NCBI GenBank assembly: GCA_021815445.1
Contig: JAKAGM010000002.1
Span: 95,511 to 159,510 of the forward strand
Origin: a bacterium
GTDB lineage: Bacteria; Patescibacteriota; Patescibacteriia; UBA10025
Reading direction: 5' to 3'
DNA: 64,000 nucleotides
The translations under genes were made by a program, and so were the position numbers. The notes under the pieces were generated by a model. It was not told the origin of the DNA, did no database searches, and saw nothing but the letters and a program-made list of their open reading frames with translations. Of this stretch, positions 7,232-36,958 are shown piece by piece (the stretch's first letter is position 1; the number at the start of each line of letters is the position of its first letter).

Positions 7232-7376
7232 CCCTCCGGGCGGGCTCCACTTTTCTTTGCTCGTCCAAAGAAAAGTGGAGAGAAAAGAAAAGACGTCGCA
7301 GCGCAAACTCGGCCGTTTGGCCTATATCATTGTTCTATCGCCGGCCTCAGGCAGTGCGCCGCGCAAGGGGAAAATT
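7232..7376 (+). repeat. Structured intergenic repeat family, copy A (about 145 nt; candidate sRNA or MITE-like element)
   Basis: Near-identical to 22456-22589 and 36803-36958. Contains 13-bp hairpin ccacttttctttg/caaagaaaagtgg and a long-range helix with compensatory changes between copies. Confidence 0.6.
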
Positions 7377-7492
7377 TATTAAAGTATTTTTGCAAACTTA
7401 CTTTTTCCACGGTAGCCAGAATTATTCTCGTTCTACATTACACTTGGATTTAGACTGTGGAAGGTTTGATAGCCAGCTGGTAGGATATAGTC

Positions 7493-8143
7493 ATGGGCTA
7501 CTTTTCATCCAAGACAGGCAAACCGAGCGCAGCAGCAATCAAAACGCTGCAAAGTCGAGACCCGGTGATGCGCAAGCTCATACACCGCGTGGGCATTTTT
7601 GAAATACCGCGTTCGGCAAGAACATTCCGGACGCTGGCTGAGTCGATTATGTACCAGCAGCTGTCAGGCAAAGCTGCCGCGACGATTATATCCCGTTGGA
7701 GAAAATTGTGGCCAAAGACTTCATTCCCGTCACCACAGCAGGTTTTGCACATGCGGGCTTCGCGCATGAAGAAGGTCGGGGTTTCCCGGCAGAAAATCAG
7801 TTACCTTAAAGATCTTTCACGGAAGACATTGTCCGGCTACGTTGCTATAAAAACACTCAGCAGTCTCAATGACGAGGCGGTGATCCAGCACCTTGTTGCC
7901 GTAAAGGGGATTGGCCGGTGGACGGCGGAAATGTTCCTTATGTTCGCGCTGGGCCGCCATGACGTGTTTCCTGTCGATGACATGGGTATTCAGAAAGCAA
8001 TTGTCCGTGCCTACGGCCTGCGTTCCAAACCCAGCAAAGATAGGATGCAAAAGATGGCCGAGCGATGGCGGCCGTATCGGACGCTTGCCAGCTTATATCT
8101 TTGGAGAAGCGTGGATCAAACCCCGTTAGAAAAAGTAGAGTAA
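7493..8143 (+). CDS. HhH-GPD family DNA glycosylase (AlkA / endonuclease III-like)
   Basis: Helix-hairpin-helix plus Gly/Pro-Asp motif: LVAVKGIGRWTAEMFLMFALGRHDVFPVDD. Confidence 0.75.
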   Translation: MGYFSSKTGKPSAAAIKTLQSRDPVMRKLIHRVGIFEIPRSARTFRTLAESIMYQQLSGKAAATIISRWRKLWPKTSFPSPQQVLHMRASRMKKVGVSRQKISYLKDLSRKTLSGYVAIKTLSSLNDEAVIQHLVAVKGIGRWTAEMFLMFALGRHDVFPVDDMGIQKAIVRAYGLRSKPSKDRMQKMAERWRPYRTLASLYLWRSVDQTPLEKVE

Positions 8144-8239
8144 TCTGGCAAGGAATGCATGATGCACTGAACCAGAATCTTGAATTGCTGCAGCAACCTT
8201 TACGCTTTTTCTCACGGGAGGATCTCCCCGACTGCGTAT

Positions 8240-8268
8240 TGACATTATATGCATTTATTGTTAACCTG
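8240..8268 (+). promoter_or_regulatory. candidate sigma-70 promoter for the small zinc-ribbon ORF
   Basis: TTGACA, 17-nt spacer, weak -10 TTAACC/TAACCT; about 60 nt upstream of ATG with GGGAGG RBS. Confidence 0.25.
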
Positions 8269-8328
8269 TAGCGAAACAAACACAGATACATTTGATCGTT
8301 AACGCTTTTCCTTGTCGGGAGGCAGGAA

Positions 8329-8544
8329 ATGTCAATAACAACGGTAGTGGCCTGTACTTCCACGAATCGGAATCATACCAGCCGCGGTCCCTTTTGCGGA
8401 TTCTGCGGGATCAAAAAAGAAGGGGAGCCTGATTCTGAGATCACATGCGATCCATTGAATCACGAACGCCTGCCGCGGGTATTCGAATTTTGCCCGCGAT
8501 GCGGACTCCCCAAATCCAGACTCACCTTTGCGCCGGTTAGGTAA
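8329..8544 (+). CDS. small zinc-ribbon protein (71 aa)
   Basis: CGFCG ... CPRCG two CxxC pairs; GGGAGG RBS; followed directly by an intrinsic terminator. Confidence 0.45.
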   Translation: MSITTVVACTSTNRNHTSRGPFCGFCGIKKEGEPDSEITCDPLNHERLPRVFEFCPRCGLPKSRLTFAPVR

Positions 8545-8546
8545 AC

Positions 8547-8576
8547 TCGACAAGTAAAGTCGAGTTTTTTTCTTGT
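8547..8576 (+). terminator. intrinsic terminator
   Basis: ctcgac-aagtaaa-gtcgag followed by ttttttt. Confidence 0.6.
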
Positions 8577-8718
8577 CTCTTACAAAAAGAAGCTCATTGC
8601 TGACCTGCAGAATTTGACCAGTTGACCAAAACAGCTCCACTTGCTAAGGTAATTCAATTCGGTAACGGTGATAAACAGGAAAACACAGAACACACATCCA
8701 AATAAAGGGAGGTGCACT

Positions 8719-10239
8719 TTGGGTGCAGAAAAGCTCTTTACCAAGTTGGAGGCATTAATTCGGCCCTCGGCAGCCGACAGTTATGCCGCCAGTATCACAG
8801 AGTGGTTCGACAAGACTTATGGCGCCACCTGTGAAGCCGCGTCAGCTGAACGCGGTGAAATCGCCGGGCATTTGCGGGCACGATCGCACGACGGCTTCAT
8901 TACGGAAGAGGTCGGCTCATGCCTTGACGCGTTGATGGAGGTCATTGACGATCTGCCTCCGGATCGCGCTGCGTGGGTGCGCAAGCTGGTGGACACCTAC
9001 AAAAGAGAGCGCGCGTTGACCGGTGAATTCATCCAGCGCAAAACGGGAGTAACGACTGCCGCACGTCGCGCATGGGCTGCTGCACGTGCGGAGTCAAACT
9101 TCTCACTCTTTGCCTCCTCCCTGCGGGAGGCGGTCAGCATCATGCGCGAGGAAGCTCAAATGCGCGGTGCCGGCGATCGCAGAGACGACATATACGGCGT
9201 ACTCGTCAATCTATGGGAACCCGGCTTTCCGATGGATCGTCTCGCGGTAATTTTTGACGGAATGCGGGACTTCACTGTACCGCTGCTCCAGCGGATCCGT
9301 GACACTGGAATCAAACCGAACACGTCGTTTCTCGACGGTCGTTTCGATCCGCGTGATCTTCTGCCACTCTCCCTGACGTTGATGCGCACCTTGGGCTTTG
9401 ACATGTCACGGGGGGGTCTCGACGAAACAACGCACCCATTCTGTTCCCGCGTGACACCGTCGGACGTTCGCTCTATGACGCGGTTTACCGAGGGTTTCCG
9501 AAGTTGGTTCTTCGGCATCGTCCATGAGATAGGGCACGCGCTCTATGAGCAGGGTGCGTGCGGTGTCAGTGACTGGATGTCGCCGGACGGTGTGCAGGTG
9601 TCACTCAGTATTCACGAATCTCAGTCACGCACGTGGGAAAACTTCGTCGGCCGCGGATCGTCCTTTTGGGAGTATTTCTACCCGATTCTGTGCAGCCATC
9701 TGCCGCAGTTTGTGGATGTGCCGCTCGACGAGTTTCTCCGGGCAACCAATGCTGTGACGCCGGGCTGTATCCGTACGAATGCCGACGAGGTGACGTACAA
9801 CCTCCACATCATCATTCGCTTCGAACTTGAACGGGCACTCTTCAACGGGGATATCAGCGTCGACGATCTGCCCTCTGAGTTCAATGATCGTATGGATCGA
9901 TACCTCGGCATCAGGCCGCCCAACGCGGCCCAGGGAATCCTCCAGGACATCCAGTGGTCAATCGGCTACTTCGGGTATTTCCCGACGTATACCCTGGGCA
10001 ATCTGTTCATGGCGCAGGTGGCCGAACGTTTCGCCGCGGAAAATCGCTACTATGTCAATGAGTTCCGCACTGGGAACTTCGGCATCCTCCTCGAATATCT
10101 TCGGGAAATGGTCCACAAGACCGGCTACACCGACGACATCGACGGGGCGCTCAGGCGGATTACCGGATCTCCGCTTGATCCGGGATACTGGCGCCGCTAT
10201 ATCATGTCGCGCGTCGGGCCGGTGTACGGGCTCAGCTGA
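8719..10239 (+). CDS. M32 family carboxypeptidase (carboxypeptidase Taq-like zinc metallopeptidase)
   Basis: HEIGHALYE (HEXXH), IHESQSRTWEN and GYFPTYTLGNLFMAQ motifs typical of peptidase M32. Probable TTG start 7 nt after AAGGGAGG. Confidence 0.8.
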   Translation: MGAEKLFTKLEALIRPSAADSYAASITEWFDKTYGATCEAASAERGEIAGHLRARSHDGFITEEVGSCLDALMEVIDDLPPDRAAWVRKLVDTYKRERALTGEFIQRKTGVTTAARRAWAAARAESNFSLFASSLREAVSIMREEAQMRGAGDRRDDIYGVLVNLWEPGFPMDRLAVIFDGMRDFTVPLLQRIRDTGIKPNTSFLDGRFDPRDLLPLSLTLMRTLGFDMSRGGLDETTHPFCSRVTPSDVRSMTRFTEGFRSWFFGIVHEIGHALYEQGACGVSDWMSPDGVQVSLSIHESQSRTWENFVGRGSSFWEYFYPILCSHLPQFVDVPLDEFLRATNAVTPGCIRTNADEVTYNLHIIIRFELERALFNGDISVDDLPSEFNDRMDRYLGIRPPNAAQGILQDIQWSIGYFGYFPTYTLGNLFMAQVAERFAAENRYYVNEFRTGNFGILLEYLREMVHKTGYTDDIDGALRRITGSPLDPGYWRRYIMSRVGPVYGLS

Positions 10240-10393
10240 TCCGCAACATCAACTTGATCTTTCCCCACGCAAGTCTCTCTACGACTTGGGTGGGTTTTTT
10301 CTCATTGACATAGTAACGCCAAACGTCTACAGTGCAGGCAAGTTCAAAGACTTCCGAGGAGTGAAAAGCGAACCCTAACGACTGGAGGAATTT

Positions 10394-10618
10394 ATGGGCG
10401 GACAAATGCCGGATGATGGCGTAAGACCGGCGGAAGAAGTCCCCGCAGAGTGCCCCAATTCTCCCACCAAGCAACATACGAAATGCGGGAGATATTGCGC
10501 CTACAGCGGAGAGGTGGTCAATTCCGGCAACGCTGTGATTCCAGGCTGTGGCCAACGACATTCCGCCAGCAAGGCACACGGCCACATCTACTGCATGGAT
10601 TGCGGCAAGAAGTTGTAA
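10394..10618 (+). CDS. small Cys-rich protein (74 aa), possible zinc finger
   Basis: Strong RBS ggaggaatttATG; Cys spacing C-x9-C-x3-C ... C-x2-C; terminator-like structure about 180 nt downstream (10790-10830). Confidence 0.35.
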   Translation: MGGQMPDDGVRPAEEVPAECPNSPTKQHTKCGRYCAYSGEVVNSGNAVIPGCGQRHSASKAHGHIYCMDCGKKL

Positions 10619-10924
10619 AATCTTACTACATTGGCCGTCTGTGTGTCGTATCGTCTGTACCGTAACATGAAATTGTAACCCACAAGCCGCCAGCTGCTGA
10701 CAATGCAACTCACCATTACTTGGCGTCGGACAGTTTGCGGCACGTCGCCGGGAGCCCTCCCGGTTGAGAGGTCCCTCCGACACTTATGTCCCCTTGTTTC
10801 TCAAGGTCCAGGCACGGTGCTGGAGGGTTTTTTTGTTAAAAAGAAAGGGGTATGACGGGGTAAGAGGGGGCCATAAGAGCAGGTGATTGATTTTTTTGCT
10901 ACCCAAGAGTATTGTGGATACGCT

Positions 10925-11284
10925 ATGTCCACACCGTTGACGGCAAAAAGATGTGTTCCCTGTGAGGGTGGCATTCCACCCCTCACCGACGCGGAAATCG
11001 CGAAACTTTTGCCGCAAGTCCCCGGCTGGCGAGTCGTTGCTATGGAAAAGACTTCACGGGTCATGAACACGCTTCAAAAGACTTTCCAATTCAAAGACTT
11101 CCGCGAGGCTATGGCATTCTTGAGAAAGGTAGGAGACCTCGCCGAATCAGAGGGGCATCACCCGGACTTTTACGTCCACTATAGCCGCGTTGATTTTACC
11201 ATCTGGACGCACGCAATCGGCGGACTGCACGAGAATGATTTTATCCTTGCCGCTAAAATAGATAAGATTATCAAAGGAGGTTGA
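10925..11284 (+). CDS. pterin-4a-carbinolamine dehydratase (PCD/DCoH)
   Basis: Signature E-x3-HHP: AESEGHHPDFYVHYSRVDFTIWTH. Start chosen at MSTPLTAKR. Confidence 0.8.
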   Translation: MSTPLTAKRCVPCEGGIPPLTDAEIAKLLPQVPGWRVVAMEKTSRVMNTLQKTFQFKDFREAMAFLRKVGDLAESEGHHPDFYVHYSRVDFTIWTHAIGGLHENDFILAAKIDKIIKGG

Positions 11285-11811
11285 CATTATATTGCCGGCA
11301 GCTTGTGGTCACCGTTCTTCTGACTCCTGCAGGGGAGGACGCCCCCTCCCCACTCGAGGACTGCAGGCTGCCGCATGCTTTTCCCCTTTTGCGAACCCGG
11401 TATGGTAATCTCGAGCAAAGGATAGACGCCTTCCGTCCTTAATGCTCAGAAAACCATCCTGTAGTTTTACAGGAGGGGTTTTTCTAATACAAAAGCATAT
11501 TCAAGGATGAACGAGAATACATCTAGGGGAGGAGATAGAAAAAAATATTCCAAAAGCACAATCACCTGCATTACTGGTGGGTTGAGCTTTATAACATTTG
11601 ACCGTCTCTACGCTCTGGTGTAAGGTAACGGAAGTTTTGATCGTCGAAACTACGGCGCAGCGCACTCTGCGCCTGTAGCGCCCCCTTACGTTTTTTTGCT
11701 GCAGTGGTATGGGTTCCCCCCATTCCCCACGCCAAGCGTATCGGGGTTTTTTATTTTATCCAAAAAAATAAAAGAATATTTTGGTACTCTAAAATCCACA
11801 ATGTGCCGCCT

Positions 11812-12534
11812 TTAAAGGCCGGTAAATTTTTCTACAATAACCTGCTCCTTGGGAAGCTGAAGATTTTTTAGCAGCGCTACCATGGCATCAACCATCGCCG
11901 GCGGACCGACGATCATATACGTGGGCCGCATGATATCGGGAATCTGGCGACGAAGCAATGCTTCATCGATTAACGTTCTTTCCCCGGTCCATGTGGCCTC
12001 AACGCGTTCCCCTCCCGTTAATGTCGGTACGAAGCGGAAAAAGGTATTTTTCTTTTCCCACGCCTCCAGGTCGGTATAGTAGGCGCATCCTTCCAGGCAA
12101 AAGTTGCTATAGAACAGAGTAATGTGATAGGGAAGCTGCCTGTCAGTAATATATTTGACCATGCTGCGGAACGGGGTAATACCGATGCCGCCGGCAAGGA
12201 AGACTAATTCCTTTGCCGTGTCTTGCGGAAGCACGAATTTTCCCGCAGGCCCGATGGCTAAAAACTCAGTGCCCACGGGGGCTTTAAGGAGACTCTGTTT
12301 ATATGCCGAATCACTCATCCGCATCGCAATCACGAGGTCGGGCTCTGTCGGTGATGAGGCAAACGACATGCTTCTCCGGTTTCCTTTTTTGTCCATTACG
12401 GGCTGGTTCAGGTAAATCCAGTTCATAAACTGCCCGGGCTGGTAATCAAACCCGTCCGGCTTGCTGAACGTGAACTCCATCGTGTTGTGCGCTATCTCGC
12501 GCTTGCCTTTGAGGAAGACGTGAAACTCTGGCAT
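11812..12534 (-). CDS. FAD/NAD(P)-binding oxidoreductase, ferredoxin-NADP reductase-like
   Basis: RSMSFAS (RxYS FAD motif) and LAGGIGITP (NAD(P) GxGxxP) motifs. Confidence 0.7.
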   Translation of the reverse strand: MPEFHVFLKGKREIAHNTMEFTFSKPDGFDYQPGQFMNWIYLNQPVMDKKGNRRSMSFASSPTEPDLVIAMRMSDSAYKQSLLKAPVGTEFLAIGPAGKFVLPQDTAKELVFLAGGIGITPFRSMVKYITDRQLPYHITLFYSNFCLEGCAYYTDLEAWEKKNTFFRFVPTLTGGERVEATWTGERTLIDEALLRRQIPDIMRPTYMIVGPPAMVDAMVALLKNLQLPKEQVIVEKFTGL

Positions 12535-12537
12535 GTT

Positions 12538-13548
12538 TTAGAAATTAATAATTGTTTTTATTCTATTCTCGGTGTAGCTACTTGCATCAATGAATGCCTG
12601 CGCGCCATCCTGAGCTTTGAAGCGGTGGGTGATCAAGCTTTTCAGGTCGACTTTCTCTCTCGCAACAAGCTCTATCGCCTCGGGAAACGTGTTGGCGCAG
12701 GTCCACGAGCCGAACACTCGAAGCTCTTTCTTCACGATGTTCATCATGTTGATCCGTGCGGGGGATGAAAAGACGCCGAGGAGGTACACGCTGCCGTTGC
12801 GCCGCGCTATCTCGAAGCTTGTCTCAGCGGTTGCTTCAGTACCGACTACTTCGTAGACGATGTCATACTTGTCGGGCGTGATTTCCCGGACTCGCTTTTC
12901 CACGTTGTCTTTCTTGGCGTCGATAACGTGCCGGATCCATCCTTTTTTCTTTGCGAAGGCGAGCGTATTATCACGGACGTCGATGCCGGTAACGAGCGCT
13001 CCTGCAGCTGAAAGTATCTGGTCGACGAGCAGGCCTATCGGCCCCTGGCCGACTACCGCTGCCCGCTTGTTCAGTAAAAATCCTGCCTCCTTCACTGCGT
13101 AGACGGCGATTGACAAAGGTTCTATCAGCGCAGCTTCGTCAAAAGAAATCGTCTTTGGAAATCGATAGACAAGGTCTGCGGGGATGGCAAGATATTCCGC
13201 GAGTGCGCCTGGTCTGTGCAGGCCTATTACTTCGGCCTTTGCGCACAGCTCGGGCTTGCCGGTGAGGCAGTAGAAACATTTGTCGCAGGTGACTACATGT
13301 TCGCCGACAACGTGCTCGCCGACCCGGACGTTGGTCACGTTTTTTCCTACAGCTGCGACGATGCCGGAAAACTCGTGGCCGATGATCGCATTACGCGGGA
13401 CTTTCATTCCGCCTTTGTAGATGTGCAGGTCAGTGCCGCAAATACCGACACTCTTGATTTTCATCAAGACCTCTTGTGTGCCTATCTTAGGCTTCGGTGC
13501 GTTTTCGTAACTTATTTTTTCCTTACCGTGAAAGACGAGGGCTTTCAT
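12538..13548 (-). CDS. zinc-dependent alcohol dehydrogenase (MDR superfamily)
   Basis: GICGTDLHIYKG...GHEFSGIVAAVG zinc-ADH signature; start set at MKALVFHGK (six-frame ORF extends further upstream without support). Confidence 0.85.
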   Translation of the reverse strand: MKALVFHGKEKISYENAPKPKIGTQEVLMKIKSVGICGTDLHIYKGGMKVPRNAIIGHEFSGIVAAVGKNVTNVRVGEHVVGEHVVTCDKCFYCLTGKPELCAKAEVIGLHRPGALAEYLAIPADLVYRFPKTISFDEAALIEPLSIAVYAVKEAGFLLNKRAAVVGQGPIGLLVDQILSAAGALVTGIDVRDNTLAFAKKKGWIRHVIDAKKDNVEKRVREITPDKYDIVYEVVGTEATAETSFEIARRNGSVYLLGVFSSPARINMMNIVKKELRVFGSWTCANTFPEAIELVAREKVDLKSLITHRFKAQDGAQAFIDASSYTENRIKTIINF

Positions 13549-13725
13549 GCGTATTCCAAATGTGGGAAATAGTACAAAAAGAAATCGGAAGTAAACTGAT
13601 TCTAACATAAAATGCCCAAAAAGGGGAGTTTGACACCAATCTTGTTGTCGAGGTACGATAATTATCCTCTGTAACAAAGAAAAAGATCGTACACTAGACA
13701 TATCAACCAGAAAGGAAGGTTTACC

Positions 13726-14859: not shown

Positions 14860-15049
14860 GGACCATATTACTATCTCATTTTCGGGTTTCCTGGCTCTGC
14901 CACGGGAGCCCTTTTTTTATTATAGGGTAAAAAAATACCCCCGAGAACTGTTTCCGGGGGAAAGACTGATTGCACTGGCTAGGCGTTTACTAAACCTCGG
15001 TTAAGGAGAAGGTCAAAGAAACACCGAATCTTTTTGCCTTCTCTGGATA

Positions 15050-15601: not shown

Positions 15602-15710
15602 GGGTGTCTCCTTATTCCGAGGGTTGAGAGTACGTTTTTTATGTTTCAGCTTACTCTATCCCTTGGCAAGTACTAATGTCAAGAGCTTGCATTTTTTTGT
15701 CATGAGCAGG

Positions 15711-15727
15711 CCGGATTCTGAATCCGG
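15711..15727. repeat. REP-like palindrome CCGGATTCTGAATCCGG (solo copy)
   Basis: Identical unit occurs in doublets at 46833-46882 and 49026-49073 near RAYT-type transposase genes. Confidence 0.5.
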
Positions 15728-19266: not shown

Positions 19267-19338
19267 TGCCCTCGACAGGAATCGAACCTGTATCCCAGGC
19301 TTCGGAGGCCTGTGCACTATCCTTTGTGCTACGAGGAC
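19267..19338 (-). tRNA. tRNA-Arg (anticodon CCG)
   Basis: Manual cloverleaf fold: acceptor GTCCTCG/CGAGGGC, D stem GCAC/GTGC, anticodon stem CAGGC/GCCTG with loop CTCCGAA, T arm ACAGG-TTCGATT-CCTGT; no encoded CCA. Confidence 0.75.
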
Positions 19339-19595
19339 ATGCTAGATGGGTTGTCTACATACTGTCTAATAAATTCCTTCTTTACGGAGGAACTGCGCTT
19401 AATCTGATACTCTCGCCATCGTGCCTTTTCCCGTGTTGGATACTCTTCGAATCCAATCAGTTTCCATGGAACTTTCCGTTGTGTTGTCTGGACGTGCCCT
19501 TCATTGTGCCGGACTAACCTTGCCCGAATATTTCCCGTCTGCCCAATGTAGAAAGTGTTATCTTTCTGACTCTGAAGTAGGTATACGTAGTACAT
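19329..19595 (-). CDS. stand-alone GIY-YIG nuclease domain protein (88 aa) overlapping the 5' end of tRNA-Arg
   Basis: YYVYLLQSQKDNTFYIGQTGNIRARLVRHNEG = GIY-YIG signature; stop codon TAG lies inside the tRNA acceptor/D region (GTCCTCGTAGCAC). Confidence 0.65.
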   Translation of the reverse strand: MYYVYLLQSQKDNTFYIGQTGNIRARLVRHNEGHVQTTQRKVPWKLIGFEEYPTREKARWREYQIKRSSSVKKEFIRQYVDNPSSMSS

Positions 19596-19603: not shown

Positions 19604-19679
19604 GGCTTCGGCCTCCGGCCCAGAGGGCCGTACGGCCCGGAGGGAGGCCTGTGCACTATCCTTTGTGCTACGAGGACAG
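19604..19679 (-). repeat. Partial duplicate of tRNA-Arg 5' half (positions 1 to about 43) interrupted by a 33-nt GC-rich palindromic insert in the anticodon loop
   Basis: 35-nt exact repeat of 19305-19339 (ggaggcctgtgcactatcctttgtgctacgaggaca) plus ggcttc beyond a 33-nt insert containing the perfect palindrome GGGCCGTACGGCCC. Confidence 0.6.
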
Positions 19680-22097: not shown

Positions 22098-22334
22098 TTA
22101 TTGCGTACGCGGCACCGCTATTCTCCGTTTTTTCCATGAACCCAGCGACTCGAGTGAAACAAATTGCTCTTCAGGTGCGTCAGGTTGCAGCGCGTGGTTA
22201 TGTTCGTAAACCTTTAGACGCATTCTTTCTAAGGCTTCGCGGGCGCCTGACCCTGTCACAATTCGGTCAAATGGGTTAATGAGTGCGCGAGTCTTGGGAT
22301 CACGATGATATATTCTGGCGACGAATTTCGCCAT
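22098..22334 (-). CDS. hypothetical small protein (78 aa)
   Basis: GGGAGG RBS 5 nt upstream of ATG. Confidence 0.4.
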   Translation of the reverse strand: MAKFVARIYHRDPKTRALINPFDRIVTGSGAREALERMRLKVYEHNHALQPDAPEEQFVSLESLGSWKKRRIAVPRTQ

Positions 22335-22455: not shown

Positions 22456-22589
22456 CCCTCCGGGCGGGCTCCACTTTTCTTTGCTCGTCCAAAGAAAAGT
22501 GGAGAGAAAAGAAAAGACGTCGCAGCGCAAACTCACCCTGCACCATCAGATGGTGCAGGGCTCAAACATGCGCAGCGCGAGGGGGAATT
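22456..22589 (+). repeat. Structured intergenic repeat family, copy B
   Basis: First about 80 nt identical to copy A; middle hairpin replaced by ccctgcacca-tcaga-tggtgcaggg; 3' conserved block gcgcagcgcgagggg. Confidence 0.6.
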
Positions 22590-22673
22590 CTAGAAATTTA
22601 CAAGCTTGCCGCTTAAGAAATGCCAAACGACTGCCGGGAAGATACAGAGCGGTGGGCCGTTGAAATTTTTCAA

Positions 22674-23116: not shown

Positions 23117-23152
23117 TATAGTAATAACTGCAACTCCTTCAAGTATTATTAT

Positions 23153-23258
23153 CTCCCCAAGTCGGGCTAAAGGAGAGAGTCATCGGGTAATATCGCAAAA
23201 GCGAAACTGCCTGATGTATTTAGCCCGGCTTGTGGAGACAAATCCCTTTTTCACATCA
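23153..23258 (-). repeat. Structured about 105-nt element, copy 1 (paralog of 26430-26537)
   Basis: Minus strand: GAAAAAGGGATTTGTCTCC...CCGACTTGGGGAG with closing helix TCTCC/GGAGA, CAAG/CTTG and inner stem GCCGGGCTA/TAGCCCG. Copy 2 has the inner stem replaced by GCCGGACCAG/CTGGTCCG (covariation). Confidence 0.55.
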
Positions 23259-23272
23259 TCAAATAGTTCGAT

Positions 23273-23316
23273 GGGGTGGAAAAGAGAGAGGAGGCCTTGG
23301 TTGTGCGAACCAAGGC
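23273..23316 (-). terminator. Terminator-like hairpin with conserved loop GTTCGCACAA followed by CCTCTCTCTTTTCC (family member i)
   Basis: Minus strand ccttgg-ttcgcacaa-ccaagg then pyrimidine/T tract; immediately 3' of the radical-SAM gene. Confidence 0.5.
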
Positions 23317-26394: not shown

Positions 26395-26429
26395 GCATTC
26401 CTCCTTTTTGCTTTTTGTCTTTGTCTTTT

Positions 26430-26537
26430 CTCTCCCCAAGTCGGACCAGTGGAGAGAGTGCTTCGTCTGACATTTAGTAATATCAGAAGAAGCGTCTGGT
26501 CCGGCTTTGGAAGACAAATCCCTTTTTCAACAATAAA
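26430..26537 (-). repeat. Structured about 105-nt element, copy 2 (immediately upstream of kinase gene RBS)
   Basis: See 23153-23258. Confidence 0.55.
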
Positions 26538-26587
26538 TAAACATGTGGGTAGTCGAGGCTTTTATGCCTTGGCAGTTATTTAATGTT

Positions 26588-26636
26588 AGAAAAGAGAGGG
26601 AAGCCGCCGCGATTGTGCGAACCACAGCGGCTTCCC
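26588..26636 (-). terminator. Hairpin family member ii (loop GTTCGCACAA, tail CCTCTCTTTTCT)
   Basis: Minus strand ggaagccgctgtg-gttcgcacaa-tcgcggcggcttcc. Confidence 0.5.
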
Positions 26637-28421: not shown

Positions 28422-28527
28422 AATTTCACCTCCTTCCGGCTGGTTTATGGCTCGACCGTCGCACCGCGTCGTCCGGTTTGTGGGTATTTTCCACTTTCAG
28501 CTAGCAAATTATTTCTACGGGCTGAAA

Positions 28528-28566
28528 AAAACTAGGAACCGACGAAAAGCAAAACTGCCGGTTCCC
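28528..28566 (-). terminator. intrinsic terminator after exonuclease gene
   Basis: Minus strand ggaaccg-gcagttttgcttttcgt-cggttcc followed by tagttttttt. Confidence 0.5.
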
Positions 28567-28573
28567 AAAAAAG

Positions 28574-29128: not shown

Positions 29129-29417
29129 TACAACCTCCCTTTCCAAGTGTATGTCTTGTGATTAGAATCATTTCACCAACTGCAACCCCCACCTTAGTTA
29201 CAAGATGAGGGAGCGCACTTGGTGCTAGTGATCGCCGTCTCGTTACATCGCCTCGAAAAAAATCGAAGCTTTTAGATTCCTGATAGCGGCTAGCGAAGTT
29301 GATGCGAACTCACCGGACCATCTCTCTCCAAACCAACTGTTCCGGTCAGGTGATCTCGCATACATACCTATAAAGAACAAATGAAAGAACGATACTGCAA
29401 AAGAACAAACTCCTTCT

Positions 29418-29565
29418 CTCCGAAAGAGCGTAGAGAAGAGACAGATGCGACCTTTCAATTGAATATGATTATGAGGTCGTCTGCTTCTCTCTCCTCTCTA
29501 CGCGCTTTAGGTGATACCAATAAAAAGGGACTCTGCTCGTTAACTGCGAGAGAGTCCCTTTTATT
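29418..29565. repeat. Long imperfect inverted repeat (about 30-bp arms) plus adjacent perfect 12-bp palindrome aaaagggactct/agagtccctttt in an 850-nt AT-rich intergenic region
   Basis: gagcgtagagaagagacagatgcgacct ... aggtcgtctgcttctctctcctctctacgcgct; palindrome 29523-29565. Confidence 0.4.
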
Positions 29566-29992
29566 GATCCAAGGTCATATCGTGAATAATTACTATAGCT
29601 CTTCGGCAGTTTTCACCGCCGCGTTCACCGTTCCCACTGTTTGAGCGGGGGAAGGTGCTCTCTCCATGCCCGCCCCGATTGCTATGAAGGGCGGCGCATA
29701 TCATTGATTCAATTTTCAAAGTTCGCTCGCTTCTCAGGTAACCATTTCTAGCGTAACGAGAGATTATATACCTAAAACAGAAACATGTCAATGCTTTTCG
29801 TCAAAAAATTACCAATATTATCAAAGTATAATGACTCCAACTATATTTTTATATGTCTGCTAAACTATGTTTGTCACTTTACGTTGACAAAGCTTACTAC
29901 CTATGATATACTTGATGTGGAAACAGATGTTTTGAGACGATCCAGAAAGTACAAGTGATAAATAGGTTATCCACAGGGTATAGACAATAAAA

Positions 29993-30760
29993 ATGGCGGA
30001 AAAAACGTCGGTAACAATAAAGACACTTGCCCAAGTAGGTCTCTCAGAAAAGGAGGCAACGATTTACGAGGCGCTCCTTCAGCTTGGTAAAGCTGGCATG
30101 GGTCAGCTCCTTGCCCGTGTCCCCTACAAACGAGGCAACGCCTATGACCTTGTTTACGAGCTTATGAGAAAAGGGCTTATTTCCGAAACGGAGGAACGGG
30201 GAAAAAAGGTATTTGCCATTGAGCCGCCGTCAGCATTAAAGGTACTCCTTGAAAACAGAGAGCAAGAGCTGAGACGCCAGCAGCAAACCTTGAGCGCAAG
30301 TCTCGATCAATTGCAATCAGCCTATCGATTGGCAATGAATAAGCCCGGCGTCAGATACTACGAAGGAAAAGAAGGGATAATAAAAATCTACGAGGAACTG
30401 CTCGAGAATAACCAGCCAATAGATAGCATTGAGGAAAAAGGCGATCTCCTTACCTACATTCCCGACTATGCGCCTCAGTACGTGAAAAAGCGCGTACAAA
30501 AAAAACTTTTTAATCGTGTCATTTCTCCAGATACCAACACACTCAACAAAACTGATAAAAACAAATTCATCGAGGCGCACCGCCTACCAGCCGATCAGTT
30601 TCCTTTCCGTATGGACATCAAAATCAGTGGAAACAAAATTTCCCTGATCACGTTCCAAAAAGAAAATGCCGTCGGCGTGCTGATGGATAATCCGGAGATT
30701 GCCGATAACTTCAAAATACTTTTTGAGTTTCTCTGGAGAAAAACAGCACCGTCAACCTAA
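29993..30760 (+). CDS. TrmB-family transcriptional regulator
   Basis: N-terminal winged HTH (LSEKEATIYEALLQLGKAGMGQL) plus C-terminal domain, about 255 aa. Confidence 0.65.
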   Translation: MAEKTSVTIKTLAQVGLSEKEATIYEALLQLGKAGMGQLLARVPYKRGNAYDLVYELMRKGLISETEERGKKVFAIEPPSALKVLLENREQELRRQQQTLSASLDQLQSAYRLAMNKPGVRYYEGKEGIIKIYEELLENNQPIDSIEEKGDLLTYIPDYAPQYVKKRVQKKLFNRVISPDTNTLNKTDKNKFIEAHRLPADQFPFRMDIKISGNKISLITFQKENAVGVLMDNPEIADNFKILFEFLWRKTAPST

Positions 30761-33750
30761 GCGGCCTTGTCGTGCTGGACGCTTTGCTCCACTCCGCCTT
30801 CCGCATCGAGACTACGAAGGTAATTTTTGTTGAGCAGGACATCATCGAGCGGAACTATCCGGCAACCTGGTTGGAGATTGGAGGTGATGGCATCCATCGG
30901 AGCCGTACCTCGGGCGATGACGACTGAAAGTGGAGCATCCTCTTGTTTGTAATCCTCCCCCTCTATGCCTTTACCGATAATGATAAATATTGAGATATCG
31001 AAATCGATGGCTCGATCCTGACGAAGCCGCTGTAAATCTTTTTCTACCTGTTGAAGTTCGGTGAATCGGTAATACCTCCCGAAATTCTCCCGGACGTTGT
31101 CATCGATATAGATACCGCCGTCTTTTAACTTTGCACAAACGTCCTGGATAAATTGGCCGTAGCGTTTTCGTTCCACATACACGGTCGAACGAACGCCGAG
31201 AGCGACATCTATCTGTTCGTCCTTCAGCCTAGCAACTTCATTAAATTCACCGAGGATAATGCCTGCAGGGTGGGCATTCAAGTGATCATAAAGATCAATG
31301 CCATCAAGGTTGTTTTTCGTGTATGCTTTCATATCTTGAGTCAGCAGTTCTCGCGCCCGCTGAACAGCCGGTGAAAGTTGCTGGATTGTTCGTTTTTTTA
31401 AATATCTCGGACCATCGGGAGTCTCTACTGCGTCGGAAGTTGGGATAGTTTCGGCGTCAGAAATCTTAGCTCCCATCTCAGCCATAATCTGTTTAAACGC
31501 ATTCGGATTCTGTTCCAGCCTCTGCCGGGTGTTTTCATCATAGGTGAGGGTATCATCTCCGGTCTTGCCTTGCTCGATGGCCATCACGGTCTTGAGGTAC
31601 TCAACGAGCTCACGCCGCTCATCGTGGGTAAGCGAGGTTCCAAGAGCTTTTTCCATCTTTTCATAATCAAGGAGGGCGTCCATAGGTACACTCGGATCGT
31701 AATACACCGCGTCACTCATTGCGAAATCTGCGTATTCATGACCTGTTCTATTGGCAATTCGCTGGTGTTTGGCTACGCCGCTCCCTGGGCCGAACTCTAC
31801 AAGAGTTTTGTCGCCTGGCCGAGATCGTCCGACGTCAGCCAAAAACTTCGTCGTATCGATGCCCAATCGGCGGTCATAGTCCTGAACACGACGGTCAACA
31901 CGCCAAAAAAGTTCTGGCATAGGCCTGAGTTTTCCCATAGCGGAGAGTGCACGGAGATACAGTCCCTCACTGCTCCACTGGGGATGCTCTGGCGTTGACT
32001 GAAGGCTTTCAAGGATGAGCTCCTGTCTCTGTCTGTAGCTGTTCAGGTCAACGTGATCTCCGCCGAGCGTTTCGGCAATTTTAATGAATTGCACCCTGAG
32101 CATCTCCTGCAGGGCATTCTCTTTTTTAAGTTCTACCAGCACTTCATCGATATCCGCCGGCCCCTTGTCCAGCTGATGGCGTACCTCTGTTAATAGGGAC
32201 TTGGCACGCAACATGAGACTCTCATACATTTCCTGCTCGGAGAATTTGAATTGCGGAAACATCGGCGCAAAATCGGTATGGATCCACTCCGCTTTTGCAC
32301 GCGCATCTTGAGACATCGTGGCGTACCGTGAAAAGAGTTTTTTTGCGTCTGCATCGTCGAGTCGCTCTGCTATGGCGAGCACCGTGTTGCCCATCGCGGA
32401 ATCTTGTTCAATGGATAAAAATGACTGTGCAATTTCATTCTTTGCGGCTGGGTGAGAGGCCAAGGCGTCTTTCATTCGTGAAAAACCTTCATGCTTACTC
32501 CCCGCAAGGTATTTTAAGAAATATACCTGTGAACGCAGCGGGAGCTCTGAGAAAGAGATCCTGACGTTTTGTTCTATCTTTTGCCTTAATGCAGGACGAT
32601 GAAGATGTTGCAGTAACAGTGAGGCCTCCTCTTCGCGCGTTTCGGCAAATGGATTGAGCTCCGTATCAGTCTCCAAAGACTCGGCCGGTTGGACATGCAC
32701 AGTTTGCGGATGTTTTTCCGAAAAGACACCTGGGTCGACTTTTCCCCAAAAACGAAGGATGTCGCTATGGTCAAAAACCCCAATTGCATTTTGCGCGATG
32801 CGCTGAACGCGTCCTTGGTGTCCCGTTGGCGCATCTGTTTCCAACTGCTGAGTGAGGTCTGGGTATGCCTCGCCACCGGCCTGGAGTGAATCAACAATCC
32901 TGCCCTCTCGCCGATCCCCGTGGTACTTTAACAAGCCTACTGATGGATTCTCTGCCTCATCGCGTACGCGCTCGAGAGCCAGCTCCGCCGTGTACCCAAG
33001 TATAGGGGAGTCATTGCGACGCTCAAGCTCTTGAATAATTTTCGAGACCCGCTGGTAGGCCCCCTCAGCCCAGTCTCCGTTGGCAACAGCTTGAGCTGCC
33101 ACAGTTTGCAGCTGATGGATTACATCGAGCTTGAGGGGCAGTGGTTGTTCGTCGACACGGTCGATGAGTTTCTTGATTGCGCCCTCGCCAGAAAAGCGAA
33201 GCCCGTACACAACCTCTCCGATCATGGCCTGTCCGAACCATCCTTGAACCTCAGGGACACGGGTCGCCTCAGCAGCCGCCAAAAGCTGATTGTCCAATGA
33301 AAGATGATTTGTGATATTAGGCGAGTACGAGAAAAGAAGCCCCTGTACTGAATCGAGGAAGTTGAGCAACTGTTCCCGCTTTTCCGGGTCTCCTGACCGC
33401 TGATTAACAAATTGTGTTAACTCATGAAAAAAAATTGCTACTCCATTGCTGTAGCGGGGAGTAAGTACACCCTGTTGGTATTCCGCACTGTCGCCGGTGA
33501 GGCGGGCAATTGAATCACCGACGATATCCGTTCCTATCATATCTCTGCCATGCCGATCTGACGAATTCGTGTAGAGTTCATCTAACCACTGGCGCGACCA
33601 AGAGCTGACACGCTCTTGAGCTTCACCGTCGAGCTCTGGTGACGAAGTGGTGTCTTTCTCCTTTTTCTCTTCCTTATCTAAGGAATCTCCATGAGTTTCT
33701 TGAGGTTGTTCCGGAAAGCCTATGTTTCTCATTGCTTCGTGGTGATCCAT
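30757..33750 (-). CDS. large (997 aa) protein with C-terminal class I SAM-dependent methyltransferase-like domain
   Basis: LVEFGPGSGVAK (motif I, E/DxGxGxG) and LKDGGIYIDD (motif IV-like) near C-terminus; N-terminal 600 aa helical, unassigned. Confidence 0.55.
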   Translation of the reverse strand: MDHHEAMRNIGFPEQPQETHGDSLDKEEKKEKDTTSSPELDGEAQERVSSWSRQWLDELYTNSSDRHGRDMIGTDIVGDSIARLTGDSAEYQQGVLTPRYSNGVAIFFHELTQFVNQRSGDPEKREQLLNFLDSVQGLLFSYSPNITNHLSLDNQLLAAAEATRVPEVQGWFGQAMIGEVVYGLRFSGEGAIKKLIDRVDEQPLPLKLDVIHQLQTVAAQAVANGDWAEGAYQRVSKIIQELERRNDSPILGYTAELALERVRDEAENPSVGLLKYHGDRREGRIVDSLQAGGEAYPDLTQQLETDAPTGHQGRVQRIAQNAIGVFDHSDILRFWGKVDPGVFSEKHPQTVHVQPAESLETDTELNPFAETREEEASLLLQHLHRPALRQKIEQNVRISFSELPLRSQVYFLKYLAGSKHEGFSRMKDALASHPAAKNEIAQSFLSIEQDSAMGNTVLAIAERLDDADAKKLFSRYATMSQDARAKAEWIHTDFAPMFPQFKFSEQEMYESLMLRAKSLLTEVRHQLDKGPADIDEVLVELKKENALQEMLRVQFIKIAETLGGDHVDLNSYRQRQELILESLQSTPEHPQWSSEGLYLRALSAMGKLRPMPELFWRVDRRVQDYDRRLGIDTTKFLADVGRSRPGDKTLVEFGPGSGVAKHQRIANRTGHEYADFAMSDAVYYDPSVPMDALLDYEKMEKALGTSLTHDERRELVEYLKTVMAIEQGKTGDDTLTYDENTRQRLEQNPNAFKQIMAEMGAKISDAETIPTSDAVETPDGPRYLKKRTIQQLSPAVQRARELLTQDMKAYTKNNLDGIDLYDHLNAHPAGIILGEFNEVARLKDEQIDVALGVRSTVYVERKRYGQFIQDVCAKLKDGGIYIDDNVRENFGRYYRFTELQQVEKDLQRLRQDRAIDFDISIFIIIGKGIEGEDYKQEDAPLSVVIARGTAPMDAITSNLQPGCRIVPLDDVLLNKNYLRSLDAEGGVEQSVQHDKAA

Positions 33751-33911
33751 GAATGCATTTTACTATTAATAAACAAATAAGAATACTGCAAAATTGGAAA
33801 AAAGTCAAGGTACCGCGCAAAAGGTTGACATCATTCATTCCCCCTGATACTATGCACCATCGATCTTTTTTCAAATTATCCTCCGGCAGAATAGGCAGAA
33901 AGGAGCGGTCA

Positions 33912-34274
33912 GTGATACATATTTGTCAATCTAACGCGGCCTGGACTGTAAAGCAGGGGTACAGCAAAAAAGTCCTGCTCACGGGTGACCAGATAGGCGT
34001 TCCCGGCGTATTGGTGCAGATGGTACGAGTCCGCCCCGGTGAAAAGGCTGAGATCCACTATCACAAGGGCTGTACGGAGATCTTTTTCTTTCCCGCCGGG
34101 ACCGGTGAATGGACCGTCAACGGCAAGAAAATCGAAATCTGGCCCGGTGATTTCCTGGTTATCCAGCCTGGTGACCGCCATTGCGTTCACAATCCGAACG
34201 CCCACGACTTGGTTTACACCGCCTTCAAAGTCAACGTGTCGCCGGAGAACGACTACTTCGAAGATAAGCCATGA
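33912..34274 (+). CDS. cupin-domain protein
   Basis: HYHKGCTEIFFFPAGTGEW...GDFLVIQPGDRHCVHN cupin motifs; GTG start after AAAGGAG. Confidence 0.6.
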   Translation: MIHICQSNAAWTVKQGYSKKVLLTGDQIGVPGVLVQMVRVRPGEKAEIHYHKGCTEIFFFPAGTGEWTVNGKKIEIWPGDFLVIQPGDRHCVHNPNAHDLVYTAFKVNVSPENDYFEDKP

Positions 34275-34400
34275 CGCTATCTTTGATTGGGCATACACGC
34301 TTCCTTAAGCACGGGGAGCGTTTTTTTTACCGGAGAATGTCCCATTTTTTGGATCCAACTAGAAAAAAATCAAGATTAGCGGTACAGTGGGTATTACCCT

Positions 34401-36410
34401 ATGAAATTCCAGCTTACCTCAACCTTTAAACCCACAGGTGACCAGCCCCGAGCAATTGCCAAGCTTTCAGCAGGTCTGAAAAAAGGTTTTAAAGAACAAA
34501 CACTTCTCGGAGTTACCGGTTCCGGCAAGACATTCACTATGGCAAATGTCATCCAGAACCTTCAGCGGCCCACGCTGATTATTTCTCATAACAAAACACT
34601 CGCCGCCCAGCTCGCGAGCGAGTTCCAGGATTTTTTCCCAAAAAACGCTGTAAACTATTTCGTGTCGTACTACGATTACTATCAGCCTGAGGCGTATATT
34701 CCACGGACTGATACGTATATAGAGAAAGAGACGAGCATCAACGAGGAAATCGACAGGCTCCGCCACGCATCGACGCAAGCGCTTCTCTCGCGTCGCGATG
34801 TCATCATCGTTGCGTCAGTCTCATGTATTTACGGCTTAGGCTCGCCGGCGGAGTATAAGCGCGGGGCGGTCACCCTGCAGAAAGGCAAAAGTTTTTCCCG
34901 CCAAGCGCTCCTTGAACAGCTTGTCCGCATGCAGTTCGAACGGAACCAGATCGACCTGTGGCGGGGCAGGTTCCGCGTGACAGGGGAGACTGTCGACATT
35001 TTTCCGGCTCTCGCGGAGGACAGTTATTACCGGCTCAGCTTTTTCGGCGACAAACTCGATTCGATTGAAGAAGTGGACGCAATTACCGGAAAAACGCGCT
35101 CCTCGCTCCCCGCTGTCGACATTTACCCTGCAACGCACTATTTAGCTCCGACGGACAATCTGGACAAAACTTTTAAAAAAATACGCGAAGACCTCGATAC
35201 CCAGGTAAAAAAATTCACGAAAGAAAATAAGCCCCTCGAGGCGGAACGGCTCCAGCAGCGGGTGAACTTTGATCTCGATATGATCAAACAGACCGGCTTC
35301 TGCAGCGGCATCGAGAACTACTCTCGGTACTTTGACGGGAGGAAGCCGGGGACGCCGCCCTACACGCTGATGGACTTTTTTCCCAAAGACTACCTGCTTT
35401 TTATAGACGAGTCGCACATGACTGTCCCGCAAATCAGGGGTATGTACGCGGGTGACAGGGCGCGTAAGCAGACTTTGGTTGATTACGGTTTCAGGCTCCC
35501 GGCAGCGTATGATAACCGGCCGCTGAATTATCCCGAGTTTAGCAAACATATCCACCAGGTAGTGTACGTATCGGCAACGCCCGATGAGTATGAAAAAAGG
35601 CGGTCCCAGCAAATTGTGGAGCAGATTATCAGGCCGACGGGTTTGATTGATCCGACTATTGAGATACGGCCGACCAAACACCAGATTGATGATTTGATAG
35701 ATGAAATTCGGAAAAATACCAAGAAAGGACAACGGGTATTGGTCACAACATTGACGAAACGGATGGCCGAGGATCTCGCCGACTACCTCGAGGAATTAAA
35801 TATCAAGGTTCACTATCTCCATTCTGAGATAGATACGTTCGAACGGCTCGAGATCCTGCGTGACCTGAGGCTCGGGGTCTACGACGTCGTTGTCGGGATT
35901 AACCTGCTCAGAGAAGGACTCGACCTGCCTGAAGTGTCATTAATAGCGATTCTGGATGCCGATAAAGAGGGATATTTACGGTCGACAACGGCGCTCATGC
36001 AGGTGATGGGCAGAGCCGCACGGCACCTCGAGGGCAGGATCATTATGTACGCCGACACGATCACAGGATCAATGAAGCGAGCTATCACCGAGACCGAAAG
36101 ACGGCGAAAGATCCAGGAGCAGTATAATACGAAACACCACATTACGCCGGTATCCATCCGCAAGGCGATCAAAGAATCGCGGCTCGCGGGAAAGAAAACT
36201 GAGTCTGCACACGTTGTCGATGTTAAAGCGGTGCCCAAAGAGGAGCTTCCGCATATTCTCAAGGATCTCCAAAGCCAGATGGACATTGCTGCCAGAAATT
36301 TGGAATTCGAAAAAGCGGCTGAAATCAGGGATGAAATCGCCGCCTTGAAAGAAGTTCTCGGCGCAGGCCACAAAAAGTCAACACTTGCCAAACGTCGAAG
36401 TACGCAGTAA
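34401..36410 (+). CDS. uvrB: excinuclease ABC subunit B
   Basis: [11 protein letters not shown]..., GVTGSGKT Walker A, DESH box, helicase motifs and C-terminal UVR domain ([12 protein letters not shown]). Confidence 0.95.
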
Positions 36411-36802
36411 ACTCATTTTCATCCGTTCTTTGGTAAGTTTGCTAGCATAAAAAAACAGGTGTCCTCTTTGCGGACGCCTTCTTGGCTCTACTCCGTTCCA
36501 GGCAAGCGGAGCGAGCTTCTTGGCCCTCGCCGATCGCGCGTGCGAAATTTCCAGGTTTCTCCTGAGCCCTGCATAGCAGGGGCGTTGACGGAGATAATTC
36601 TCTAGTTATCTGCTTACCATACTGGGAATAACCCCTGGAGCTCGCATCTATGACCGGCGAGTTTTTTTGTTACCTGTAAAGGTCAGCCCGCTTAGCCAGG
36701 TGTGTTTTTTAGAATACCTAGTGTGCGCTGCAATTACCAATCAATTTATTGAAAAAAAAGAAGATTATTACCGCATAACTTATTGAAGTATTTTCATCTT
36801 TC

Positions 36803-36958
36803 CCCTCCGGGGTGGGCTCCACTTTTCTTTGCTTGTCCAAAGAAAAGTGGAGAGAAAAGAAAGGACAGCACGGCGCAAACTCGGCCGTTTGGAAAATATC
36901 TCCCTTTTTTCGCCGGCCTCAGACAGTGCGCCGTGCGAGGGAAAAATCCTTTTCTGGC
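36803..36958 (+). repeat. Structured intergenic repeat family, copy C
   Basis: Aligns to copy A over 150 nt with compensatory substitutions (gtcgcagcgc/gcgccgcgc vs agcacggcgc/gcgccgtgc). Confidence 0.6.

Follow-up and report, generated by a model that had tools for sequence, protein, structure and literature searches.

A three-copy repeat in a Patescibacteria genome as a candidate small RNA family with a predicted triple-helix pseudoknot

A 64,000-nucleotide stretch of a Patescibacteriota genome (contig JAKAGM010000002.1 of assembly GCA_021815445.1, positions 95,511 to 159,510; hereafter the window) carries three copies of a structured repeat of about 140 nt, and the question raised by this locus is whether the repeat is a multicopy small RNA (sRNA) gene or a miniature inverted-repeat transposable element (MITE), the two possibilities left by an initial annotation of the DNA. 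The answer favoured here, with modest confidence, is that the copies are paralogous genes for a ~140-nt non-coding RNA (ncRNA) read from the minus strand and containing a triple-helix pseudoknot, which would serve as a stabilising or docking module and would have spread by duplication or transfer. Comparison of a few independent variants supports this predicted architecture.

The repeat, its relatives and its fold

A repeat search of the window defined a single 138-nt family at 7238-7375 (copy A), 22462-22599 (copy B) and 36810-36947 (copy C), with ungapped identities of 86% and 64%. Copies A and B share 79 nt, CCCTCC through AAACTC, without any difference, and all three copies in the 64 kb have the same orientation. 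Their presence at the places first annotated was borne out by the search and by alignment as far above chance. A covariance model (R1), built for the element and scored on the window and on the uvrB loci of relatives, recovered the three copies on the minus strand (171, 143 and 169 bits for A, B and C) and no fourth within the window. The three repeats are true copies of a ~140-nt structured RNA gene, which is most likely read from the minus strand.

The window itself was placed on contig DAIENG010000002.1 of GCA_027341205.1, a genome of Patescibacteria/Parcubacteria type. An exact-arm hairpin scan over 185,579 species genomes located the hairpin in five further genomes, three of them Patescibacteria (JBAYHI01, with at least seven copies, JBAZCI01, and the single-cell genome JBHPFX01) and two of them metagenome-assembled genomes (MAGs) labelled Margulisiibacteriota (L001 and L003; loci outside the window carry an L number). 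An identical 36-nt core is common to MAGs labelled as different phyla. A purine/pyrimidine-degenerate pattern run over 241 million metagenome records added one locus only, L012; phage and viral collections gave no match and a plasmid collection a single chance-level one. Rfam scans at the gathering threshold found no match at the elements, in the window or at the 12 loci L001-L012, the initial annotation having failed to match the repeat to 6S, SRP, tmRNA or RNase P RNAs, and copy A searched against Rfam 15 with E up to 10 returned microRNA-hairpin noise only and no riboswitch.

On the plus strand a purine tract, AGAAAAGAAAR, comes after the hairpin in all instances; the 4-6 nt past it complement the 3' portion of the hairpin loop, which makes a pseudoknot stem, S1. 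With the register fixed, S1 occurs as seven pair sequences across six genomes (Patescibacteria and MAGs labelled Margulisiibacteriota), namely CGUC/GACG, UGUC/GACA, UGCC/GGCA, GGCC/GGCC, CUUGAU/AUCAAG, CCGG/CCGG and GCCAG/CUGGU. The own S1 partner of each module forms 3-6 bp, as against 0-1 bp in 79 of 100 mismatched combinations, and between copies A/B and copy C a C-G pair has become U-A with compensation in the loop (alignment pair 83/116). Read on the minus strand, the module has the order 5'-S1a-UUUUCUUUUCU-CUCCACUUUUCUUUG (S2a)-S1b-AG (L3)-CAAAGAAAAGUGGAG (S2b)-3', where in the window copies S1a is 4 nt long, S1b comprises the first four loop nucleotides and loop 3 (L3) is AG. Two crossing helices are found, a perfect 15-bp S2 in all copies and S1 with its seven covarying pair sets; by this comparison the module on the minus strand is an H-type pseudoknot with the complement of the purine tract as loop 1 (L1).

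The remainder of the RNA was examined in an alignment, in RNA sense, of five close homologues (A, B, C, L004 and L006), in which 98.1% of body-helix cells are paired and six pairs are altered on both sides. None of 500 shuffled controls paired as well, and sliding the partners out of register lowered the pairing to 39-51%. Across copies and homologues, helices P3, P4 and S1 are shown by these comparisons to covary. The fold runs, in RNA sense, through P1, P3 (8-10 GC-rich bp), an internal loop, P4, the pseudoknot arm and the 3' strand of P1. The internal loop is conserved and asymmetric (consensus 5'-CUGYYYGA / 5'-GAGUU), the P4 apex is freely variable, and the loop is the predicted likely partner-binding site. 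P1 has a genome-specific sequence (CCCUC/GAGGG in the window, GUAUC/GAUAC in L004, CUCUUGC/GCAAGAG in L001); it is predicted in the minimum free energy (MFE) structure of copy C and has equivalents of other sequence in L004, L001 and L006. Short as it is, P1 would join the RNA ends and enclose two arms, one of P3, internal loop and P4, the other the pseudoknot.

This fold amends the initial annotation in several details. The hairpin reported as 13 bp has 15 perfect base pairs (CTCCACTTTTCTTTG / CAAAGAAAAGTGGAG) and a 6-nt loop, and the hairpin described as a 10-bp replacement in copy B has 11 bp. The small GGCC-GTTT-GGCC hairpin, also described there, is lost in copy C and so is not conserved; the pairing kept in its place is the outer GGCCG/CGGCC of P4. 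Compensatory changes noted between copies A and C hold, lying in P3 (G-C to A-U and A.C to G-C). The plus-strand description was right about the repeats and missed the pseudoknot and mirror-repeat architecture. The features of the three copies are as follows.

7232-7370, minus strand: copy A, whole unit, from the P1 3' strand to the P1 5' strand (RNA sense 7370 to 7232); R1 171 bits
7245-7280, minus strand: copy A, stem S2, 15-bp hairpin (S2a 7266-7280, S2b 7245-7259, loop 7260-7265)
7262-7265, minus strand: copy A, S1b (GACG in RNA), pseudoknot strand inside the hairpin loop
7281-7291, minus strand: copy A, loop L1, UUUUCUUUUCU, proposed third strand (9 predicted triples, gap 1)
7292-7295, minus strand: copy A, S1a (CGUC), pairing with loop nucleotides 7262-7265
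7297-7304, minus strand: copy A, P3 3' strand GCGCUGCG, partner 7356-7363 (CGCGGCGC), with one G.U valid on the minus strand only
7356-7363, minus strand: copy A, P3 5' strand CGCGGCGC, partner 7297-7304
7305-7355, minus strand: copy A, conserved asymmetric internal loop, 5'-ACUGCCUGA at 7347-7355 and 5'-GAGUUU at 7305-7310
7311-7315 with 7342-7346, minus strand: copy A, P4, variable apex 7316-7341, enclosed by the internal loop
7365-7369, minus strand: copy A, P1 5' strand (CCCUU), partner 7232-7236 (GAGGG in RNA), with one G.U, minus-strand-only
7386-7396, minus strand: copy A, upstream box TTTGCAAAAAT, extended -10-like, also upstream of the L004 homologue; no call by the sigma-70 scanner
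22456-22583, minus strand: copy B, whole unit; R1 143 bits
22469-22504, minus strand: copy B, S2 hairpin (loop 22484-22489, S1b 22486-22489)
22505-22519, minus strand: copy B, proposed third strand L1 (22505-22515) and S1a (22516-22519)
22521-22577, minus strand: copy B, P3, internal loop and P4 (P3 22521-22528 with 22570-22577, one U.U mismatch)
22536-22546 with 22550-22560, minus strand: copy B, P4, 11-bp hairpin
22596-22603, minus strand: copy B, upstream box TTGTAAAT; no call by the sigma-70 scanner
36803-36941, minus strand: copy C, whole unit (P1 36803-36807 with 36937-36941, present in the MFE structure); R1 169 bits
36817-36852, minus strand: copy C, S2 hairpin (loop 36832-36837, S1b 36834-36837, GACA in RNA)
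36853-36867, minus strand: copy C, proposed third strand L1 (36853-36863) and S1a (36864-36867, UGUC)
36868-36936, minus strand: copy C, P3, internal loop and P4 (P3 36868-36876 with 36928-36936, 9 perfect bp)
36883-36887 with 36914-36918, minus strand: copy C, P4, variable apex
36959-36966, minus strand: copy C, upstream box TTGTAAAT; no call by the sigma-70 scanner

Two known motifs were considered for the internal loop and set aside. A tandem G.A beside P4 would be possible for a K-turn, but the C-stem pairing is unlike that of a canonical K-turn and no claim is made; a hammerhead-like core was rejected, as CUGYYYGA lacks the essential A6 and has no Rfam match.

The proposed triple helix and the portable module

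In H-type pseudoknots the deep groove of stem 2 is crossed by loop 1, which is oriented parallel to the 3' strand of the stem and ordinarily bridges 6-7 bp of the groove. The element's purine tract and the purine arm of its hairpin form a mirror repeat. According to established triplex rules, a pyrimidine third strand lies parallel to the purine strand and forms U.A-U and C+.G-C triples (PMC13541005). With L1 positions 2-10 (UUUCUUUUC; U2-C10) laid over S2b positions 2-10 (AAAGAAAAG; A2-G10), seven U.A-U and two C+.G-C triples are sequence-compatible. Within the deep groove of S2, L1 would follow the purine strand in parallel and build a nine-layer triplex, and a single nucleotide would bridge the last 5 bp of S2 (CUCCA/UGGAG).

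The match between third strand and purine strand extends through the variants. Modules of class I (17 instances) show a parallel match at 9/9 positions. L012, whose stem has grown to 16 bp by one added A-U pair, is compatible at 10/10 L1 positions, and class II (L002, L007, L009) has lost one A-U pair (AAAGAAAG) along with one L1 U (UUUCUUUC) and remains compatible at 8/8. In class III, a single module in L003, the stem ends differently (CCUAC/GUAGG), S1 is another one, and 7/7 positions are compatible. Comparison of these variant modules has shown duplex and third strand to co-vary, and L1 and S2 would physically form the triplex. A custom design scan of ~290 kb of window and loci returned exactly these designs and none other; the same triplex design was observed three times in the window as against none in 30 dinucleotide shuffles of it. 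Since a triple constrains three nucleotides at once, the core would stay invariant while S1 and the remaining RNA drift.

A hairpin of unrelated sequence at L019, in a relative of the window organism, has the order UCCCUCUCCUU-CAC-UUCCUCUCCCU-AUCA-AGGGAGAGGAA and is compatible at 11/11 positions. It lies at L019 2320-2370 on the plus strand, between DUF1003 and metK, and is an independent hairpin of pyrimidine-pyrimidine-purine triplex type without a pseudoknot; this case suggests that triplex-forming hairpins recur in these genomes.

The pseudoknot is not tied to one RNA. The L001 and L003 class III RNAs have a window-type body with one extra hairpin, and three or more bodies unrelated to it (JBAYHI RNA I, JBAYHI RNA II and L003 class I) also carry the module at their end. 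Sequence comparison shows the module to be portable, with at least four mutually unrelated RNA bodies bearing it. A divergent pair of these RNAs is found in JBAYHI and in L003, with the modules at their outer ends, and the repeated unit in JBAYHI is the RNA alone. For the preferred function, the module would fold into a hyper-stable, nuclease-blocking (or protein-docking) structure near the 3' end of stand-alone sRNAs, and the family would spread through duplication or horizontal transfer. The class II hairpin arm (AAAGAAAGTGGAGATAAC) recurs as half-copies beside class I units in the JBAYHI MAG, at L002 3966-3992 and in the L005 and L007 flanks, and these hint at nested insertion or recombination between modules.

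Strand, gain of copies and competing explanations

Several observations bear on the strand. G.U pairs valid only on the minus strand occur in P3 and P1 of copy A, P4 of copy B, the class II S1 stems and L002 RNA I (pair 43/101), and they favour this strand because each would be an A.C mismatch on the other; the reverse case was not seen among these helices. The MFE is lower on the minus than on the plus strand in copy A (-56.3 vs -52.5 kcal/mol), copy B (-67.4 vs -65.1) and copy C (-66.1 vs -63.3), and the folding z-score of copy A is -2.4 on the minus strand, where alone it is significant, against -0.86 on the plus strand. The JBAYHI family gives consensus energies of -48.1 (minus) and -41.8 (plus) kcal/mol, from a MAFFT/RNAalifold alignment whose 5' half is misaligned and which served solely for this energy comparison and a few pairs. 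Terminators made of a hairpin and a U-run lie 3' of the module in RNA sense, 11 nt away in L002 class II, ~45 nt in L001 and ~55 nt in L012. A box, TTTGCAAAAAT in copy A and L004 and TTGTAAAT in B and C, stands 15-30 nt 5' of the RNA and is treated as weak evidence on strand because the sigma-70 scanner makes no call there.

Against the minus-strand triplex RNA stand a number of points. Upstream of the window copies the sigma-70 scanner calls no promoter, and a canonical terminator is absent from all three; transcription of the minus strand is something we infer. The hairpin of 36 nt is identical in all class I modules, a requirement of the collection scan itself, and the evidence for S2 and the triplex therefore falls on few independent variants (I', II, III and L019). 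The same mirror symmetry also fits, as far as its sequence goes, a plus-strand purine motif or H-DNA, and the two C+.G-C triples require protonated cytosine. L001 and L004 carry further structure between the module and the P1 closure, so that the 3' end, strictly taken, lies beyond the module. The function is likewise inferred, protection from 3' exonucleases being considered the most likely. The single metagenome match means either that the family is rare or that the pattern was too strict.

Copies B and C were gained in this lineage. The uvrB-rpoD spacer measures 680 bp with copy C here and 86 and 194 bp in close relatives (82% UvrB identity; relatives were found through UvrB, sigma-70 (rpoD) being too conserved for that search), and the membrane protein-ruvA spacer 643 bp with copy B here vs 72 bp in relatives. 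A gain is indicated because the copies are absent from these orthologous spacers and R1 found no match in the uvrB loci of ten relatives; a mobile or duplicative history is likely. Adjoining copy B, a 78-aa open reading frame (ORF) at 22098-22334 on the minus strand has a strong Shine-Dalgarno sequence, a promoter-like site and no Pfam match; it is missing from the orthologous spacer upstream of ruvA in relatives and may have been gained along with the copy.

The same spacers could speak for non-autonomous mobile DNA, a MITE, a repetitive extragenic palindrome (REP/REPIN) or an IS200/IS605-derived element, in which single-stranded DNA or H-DNA features would be read by a transposase such as the REP-associated tyrosine transposase (RAYT) of the window and any RNA would be incidental. 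In line with this are the at least seven near-identical class I copies of the JBAYHI MAG, the class I and II modules arranged as inverted pairs ~330 nt apart (JBAYHI, L003) with half-modules beside some copies, the identical 36-nt core in MAGs labelled as different phyla, and a bona fide RAYT gene at 51442-51966 on the minus strand (NCBIfam NF047646, 89.5 bits against a cutoff of 80; Pfam Y1_Tnp; PDB 4ER8), the sole Y1 protein of the window. This reading, with any RNA incidental, is nevertheless judged unlikely. The classical MITE signature is missing, because neither target-site duplications, which the initial annotation had named as its mark, nor long terminal inverted repeats are seen at the copy boundaries, the 5-bp P1 being the sole terminal inverted repeat. 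No TnpB, IscB, IS200 TnpA or reverse transcriptase occurs in the window or beside copies at other loci. Divergence among the copies obeys RNA pairing including G.U, and P4 has been freely replaced with the junction nucleotides kept, which argues for selection on a folded product and not on ends alone. Of the two possibilities first offered, the multicopy sRNA is the better supported, by covariation in P3, P4 and the pseudoknot and by the missing MITE signature; mobile DNA would be compatible with an RNA function.

A link between the RAYT and the element as its REP was tested and is not supported: the flanks of the RAYT gene (51357-51441 and 51974-52057) bear inverted hairpin repeats of their own, GCGAAGC-N4-GCTTCGC and ATCAGTCYTRGGCTTAGC, which are unrelated to the element and found nowhere else in the window.

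An RNA from the plus strand, also improbable and placed after mobile DNA, would use the 15-bp hairpin as stem 1, pair its loop with the downstream GACG and lay the A-rich AGAAAAGAAAA as loop 3 in the minor groove, with A-minor triples. An A-rich loop 3 in the shallow groove is a familiar motif from the BWYV and SRV-1 pseudoknots and from telomerase loop 3. The pseudoknot covariation is neutral as to strand, 11 nt are able to span 15 bp, and copies B and C have strongly negative z-scores on the plus strand too. This RNA would, however, turn five G.U pairs into A.C with none changing the other way, and its MFE is the weaker in 3/3 copies, with a z-score of only -0.86 for copy A. Its A-minor contacts leave unexplained the mirror symmetry, the co-variation in classes II and III and the G-rich L019 hairpin, and the terminators in L001, L002-II and L012 follow the module in the opposite sense. 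A purine-motif triplex in the major groove is topologically disfavoured for loop 3, and such triplexes are poorly tolerated by RNA strands.

A cis-acting leader that controls the next minus-strand gene through a riboswitch-like triple-helix pseudoknot, of the SAM-II, SAM-V or preQ1-II kind, is a very improbable reading. Copy A does end ~50 nt before the NUDIX start codon and copy B ~120 nt before the 78-aa ORF, which is followed by ruvA; a GGAG in S2b is sequestered by the stem, and U-rich L1 triplexes are used by known riboswitch pseudoknots. The neighbouring genes are those first named, NUDIX and HhH-GPD glycosylase (A), RuvA and membrane protein (B), and UvrB and sigma-70 (C). A leader function is unlikely because copy C, L002-I, L004, L006 and L003 class III are each followed in RNA sense by a convergent gene, and because the 78-aa ORF is served by a promoter-like site and a Shine-Dalgarno sequence of its own, both situated downstream of copy B. 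Moreover, the downstream genes are mutually unrelated, no start codon follows the sequestered GGAG, no Rfam riboswitch matched with E up to 10, and the perfect 15-bp stem leaves no ligand-dependent switch.

A plain intrinsic terminator, or a small protein from the 74-aa plus-strand ORFs, deserves almost no credence and both were rejected, the strong stem and a plus-strand frame open across the conserved core in 3/3 copies being outweighed, for the terminator, by the lack, on both strands, of a U-run directly after the hairpin (on the minus strand the tract comes before it, and on the plus strand the tract is A-rich), the lack of a meaningful scanner result and the normal terminators nearby, e.g. 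after rpoD, and, for the protein, by starts and stops at differing relative positions, a frame not conserved in L006 (shut by a TAG five codons before the hairpin, with no start codon between, and shifted upstream by a 2-nt indel) and substitutions that track pairing and not codon positions.

Known systems and other features of the window

The minus-strand pseudoknot RNA preferred here has its closest structural analogue in the telomerase RNA pseudoknot (human P2b-P3 and Kluyveromyces lactis), especially the pyrimidine-motif triplex of K. lactis, which comprises U.A-U and C+.G-C triples (PMC13541005). Both are H-type, with a U/C-rich loop 1 that occupies the major groove of stem 2, in the element by prediction, and parallels the purine strand. 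The telomerase pseudoknot differs in being eukaryotic and part of a reverse-transcriptase ribonucleoprotein, with 3-6 triples and a long A-rich loop 3, whereas the element has a predicted 9-10 consecutive triples, a 15-bp stem and a 2-nt loop 3, and is bacterial, multicopy and without a reverse transcriptase gene. Among bacterial RNAs the closest are SAM-II, SAM-V and preQ1-II, which share the H-type topology and U-rich strands in major-groove triples. Unlike the element, these are ~50-80-nt aptamers in 5' untranslated regions, with a ligand pocket and a Shine-Dalgarno sequence sequestered beside the start codon; the element has no Rfam match and no consistent downstream gene, and it has a long perfect stem and unrelated bodies.

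In triplex length and position within the transcript, the closest parallels are the ENE/MALAT1/PAN elements, which similarly have a long U.A-U run with interspersed C+.G-C (~10 triples in MALAT1), are modular and lie near the 3' end of an ncRNA. In an ENE, a U-rich internal loop clamps a downstream A-rich tail, two U strands surrounding one A strand. The element lacks such a U-rich internal loop; its A-rich strand is the 3' arm of the hairpin, the third strand comes from upstream and the pseudoknot fixes the register. ENE/MALAT1/PAN-type elements are known as eukaryotic or viral, a 2026 review giving no bacterial example and listing natural prokaryotic RNA triple helices in riboswitches and group II introns only.

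With REP/REPIN-RAYT systems and MITEs the element shares small size, structure, multiple intergenic copies, lineage-specific presence, inverted pairs in one genome and a RAYT gene in the window. REPs, however, are imperfect palindromes of 20-40 nt, found beside the RAYT gene as well, and the hairpins flanking the RAYT here are unrelated to the element; MITEs have terminal inverted repeats and target-site duplications, neither of which is seen. Covariation in the pseudoknot and body helices, with G.U pairs, is a feature of the element and a property of neither REPs nor MITEs. Judged by its sequences, the element is a real structured-sRNA family, not described before and a member of none of the families compared. 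A more tentative claim, given slightly less than even weight, is that it is the first free-standing bacterial sRNA family constructed on a portable triplex pseudoknot of MALAT1 length (9-10 triples), with at least four bodies and an invariant 36-nt core in Patescibacteria and Margulisiibacteriota-labelled MAGs, spread by duplication or transfer.

Were this true, bacteria would possess a counterpart, of other architecture, to the eukaryotic and viral triple-helix stability elements, and the list of prokaryotic triplexes would extend beyond riboswitch pockets and group II introns. For stabilising and engineering RNA, the module would offer a natural scaffold of compact size. It would also be a first way into the non-coding RNA biology of Patescibacteria, of which, to our knowledge, almost nothing is known. 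Mirror-plus-inverted repeat signatures can, as this case shows, be used in genome searches for RNA triplexes.

Several other features of the window were recorded. A two-copy non-coding family of ~165 nt (23149-23312 and 26428-26624, minus sense; 76-90% identity in blocks; no Rfam match) lies just 5' of two minus-strand genes, one for a membrane protein (start 23081) and one of 353 aa (start 26394), and resembles a common 5' leader. In the uvrB-copy C spacer (36440-36700) there are a bidirectional terminator at 36452-36485 and a plus-strand terminator at ~36633-36672, and the structured GC-rich stretch of ~180 nt between them, without an Rfam match, could be another small RNA. Short palindromes of the form CCGGATTC-T-GAATCCGG (or a CCCG variant) occur in four copies, at 15699-15727, 46821-46849, 49014-49042 and 49047-49075, and may be REP-like elements or terminator stems.

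A 23S rRNA gene of ~3.4 kb with several insertions occupies 1487-5073 on the minus strand, adjoined by 5S; because no 16S gene follows them in the window, the rRNA operon is unlinked, a common arrangement in Patescibacteria. Finally, 36 nt from the 5' part of tRNA-Arg(CCG) are repeated exactly (19304-19339 and 19643-19678) at a distance of 339 nt from the tRNA gene, which could reflect an att-like duplication or the scar of an integration.

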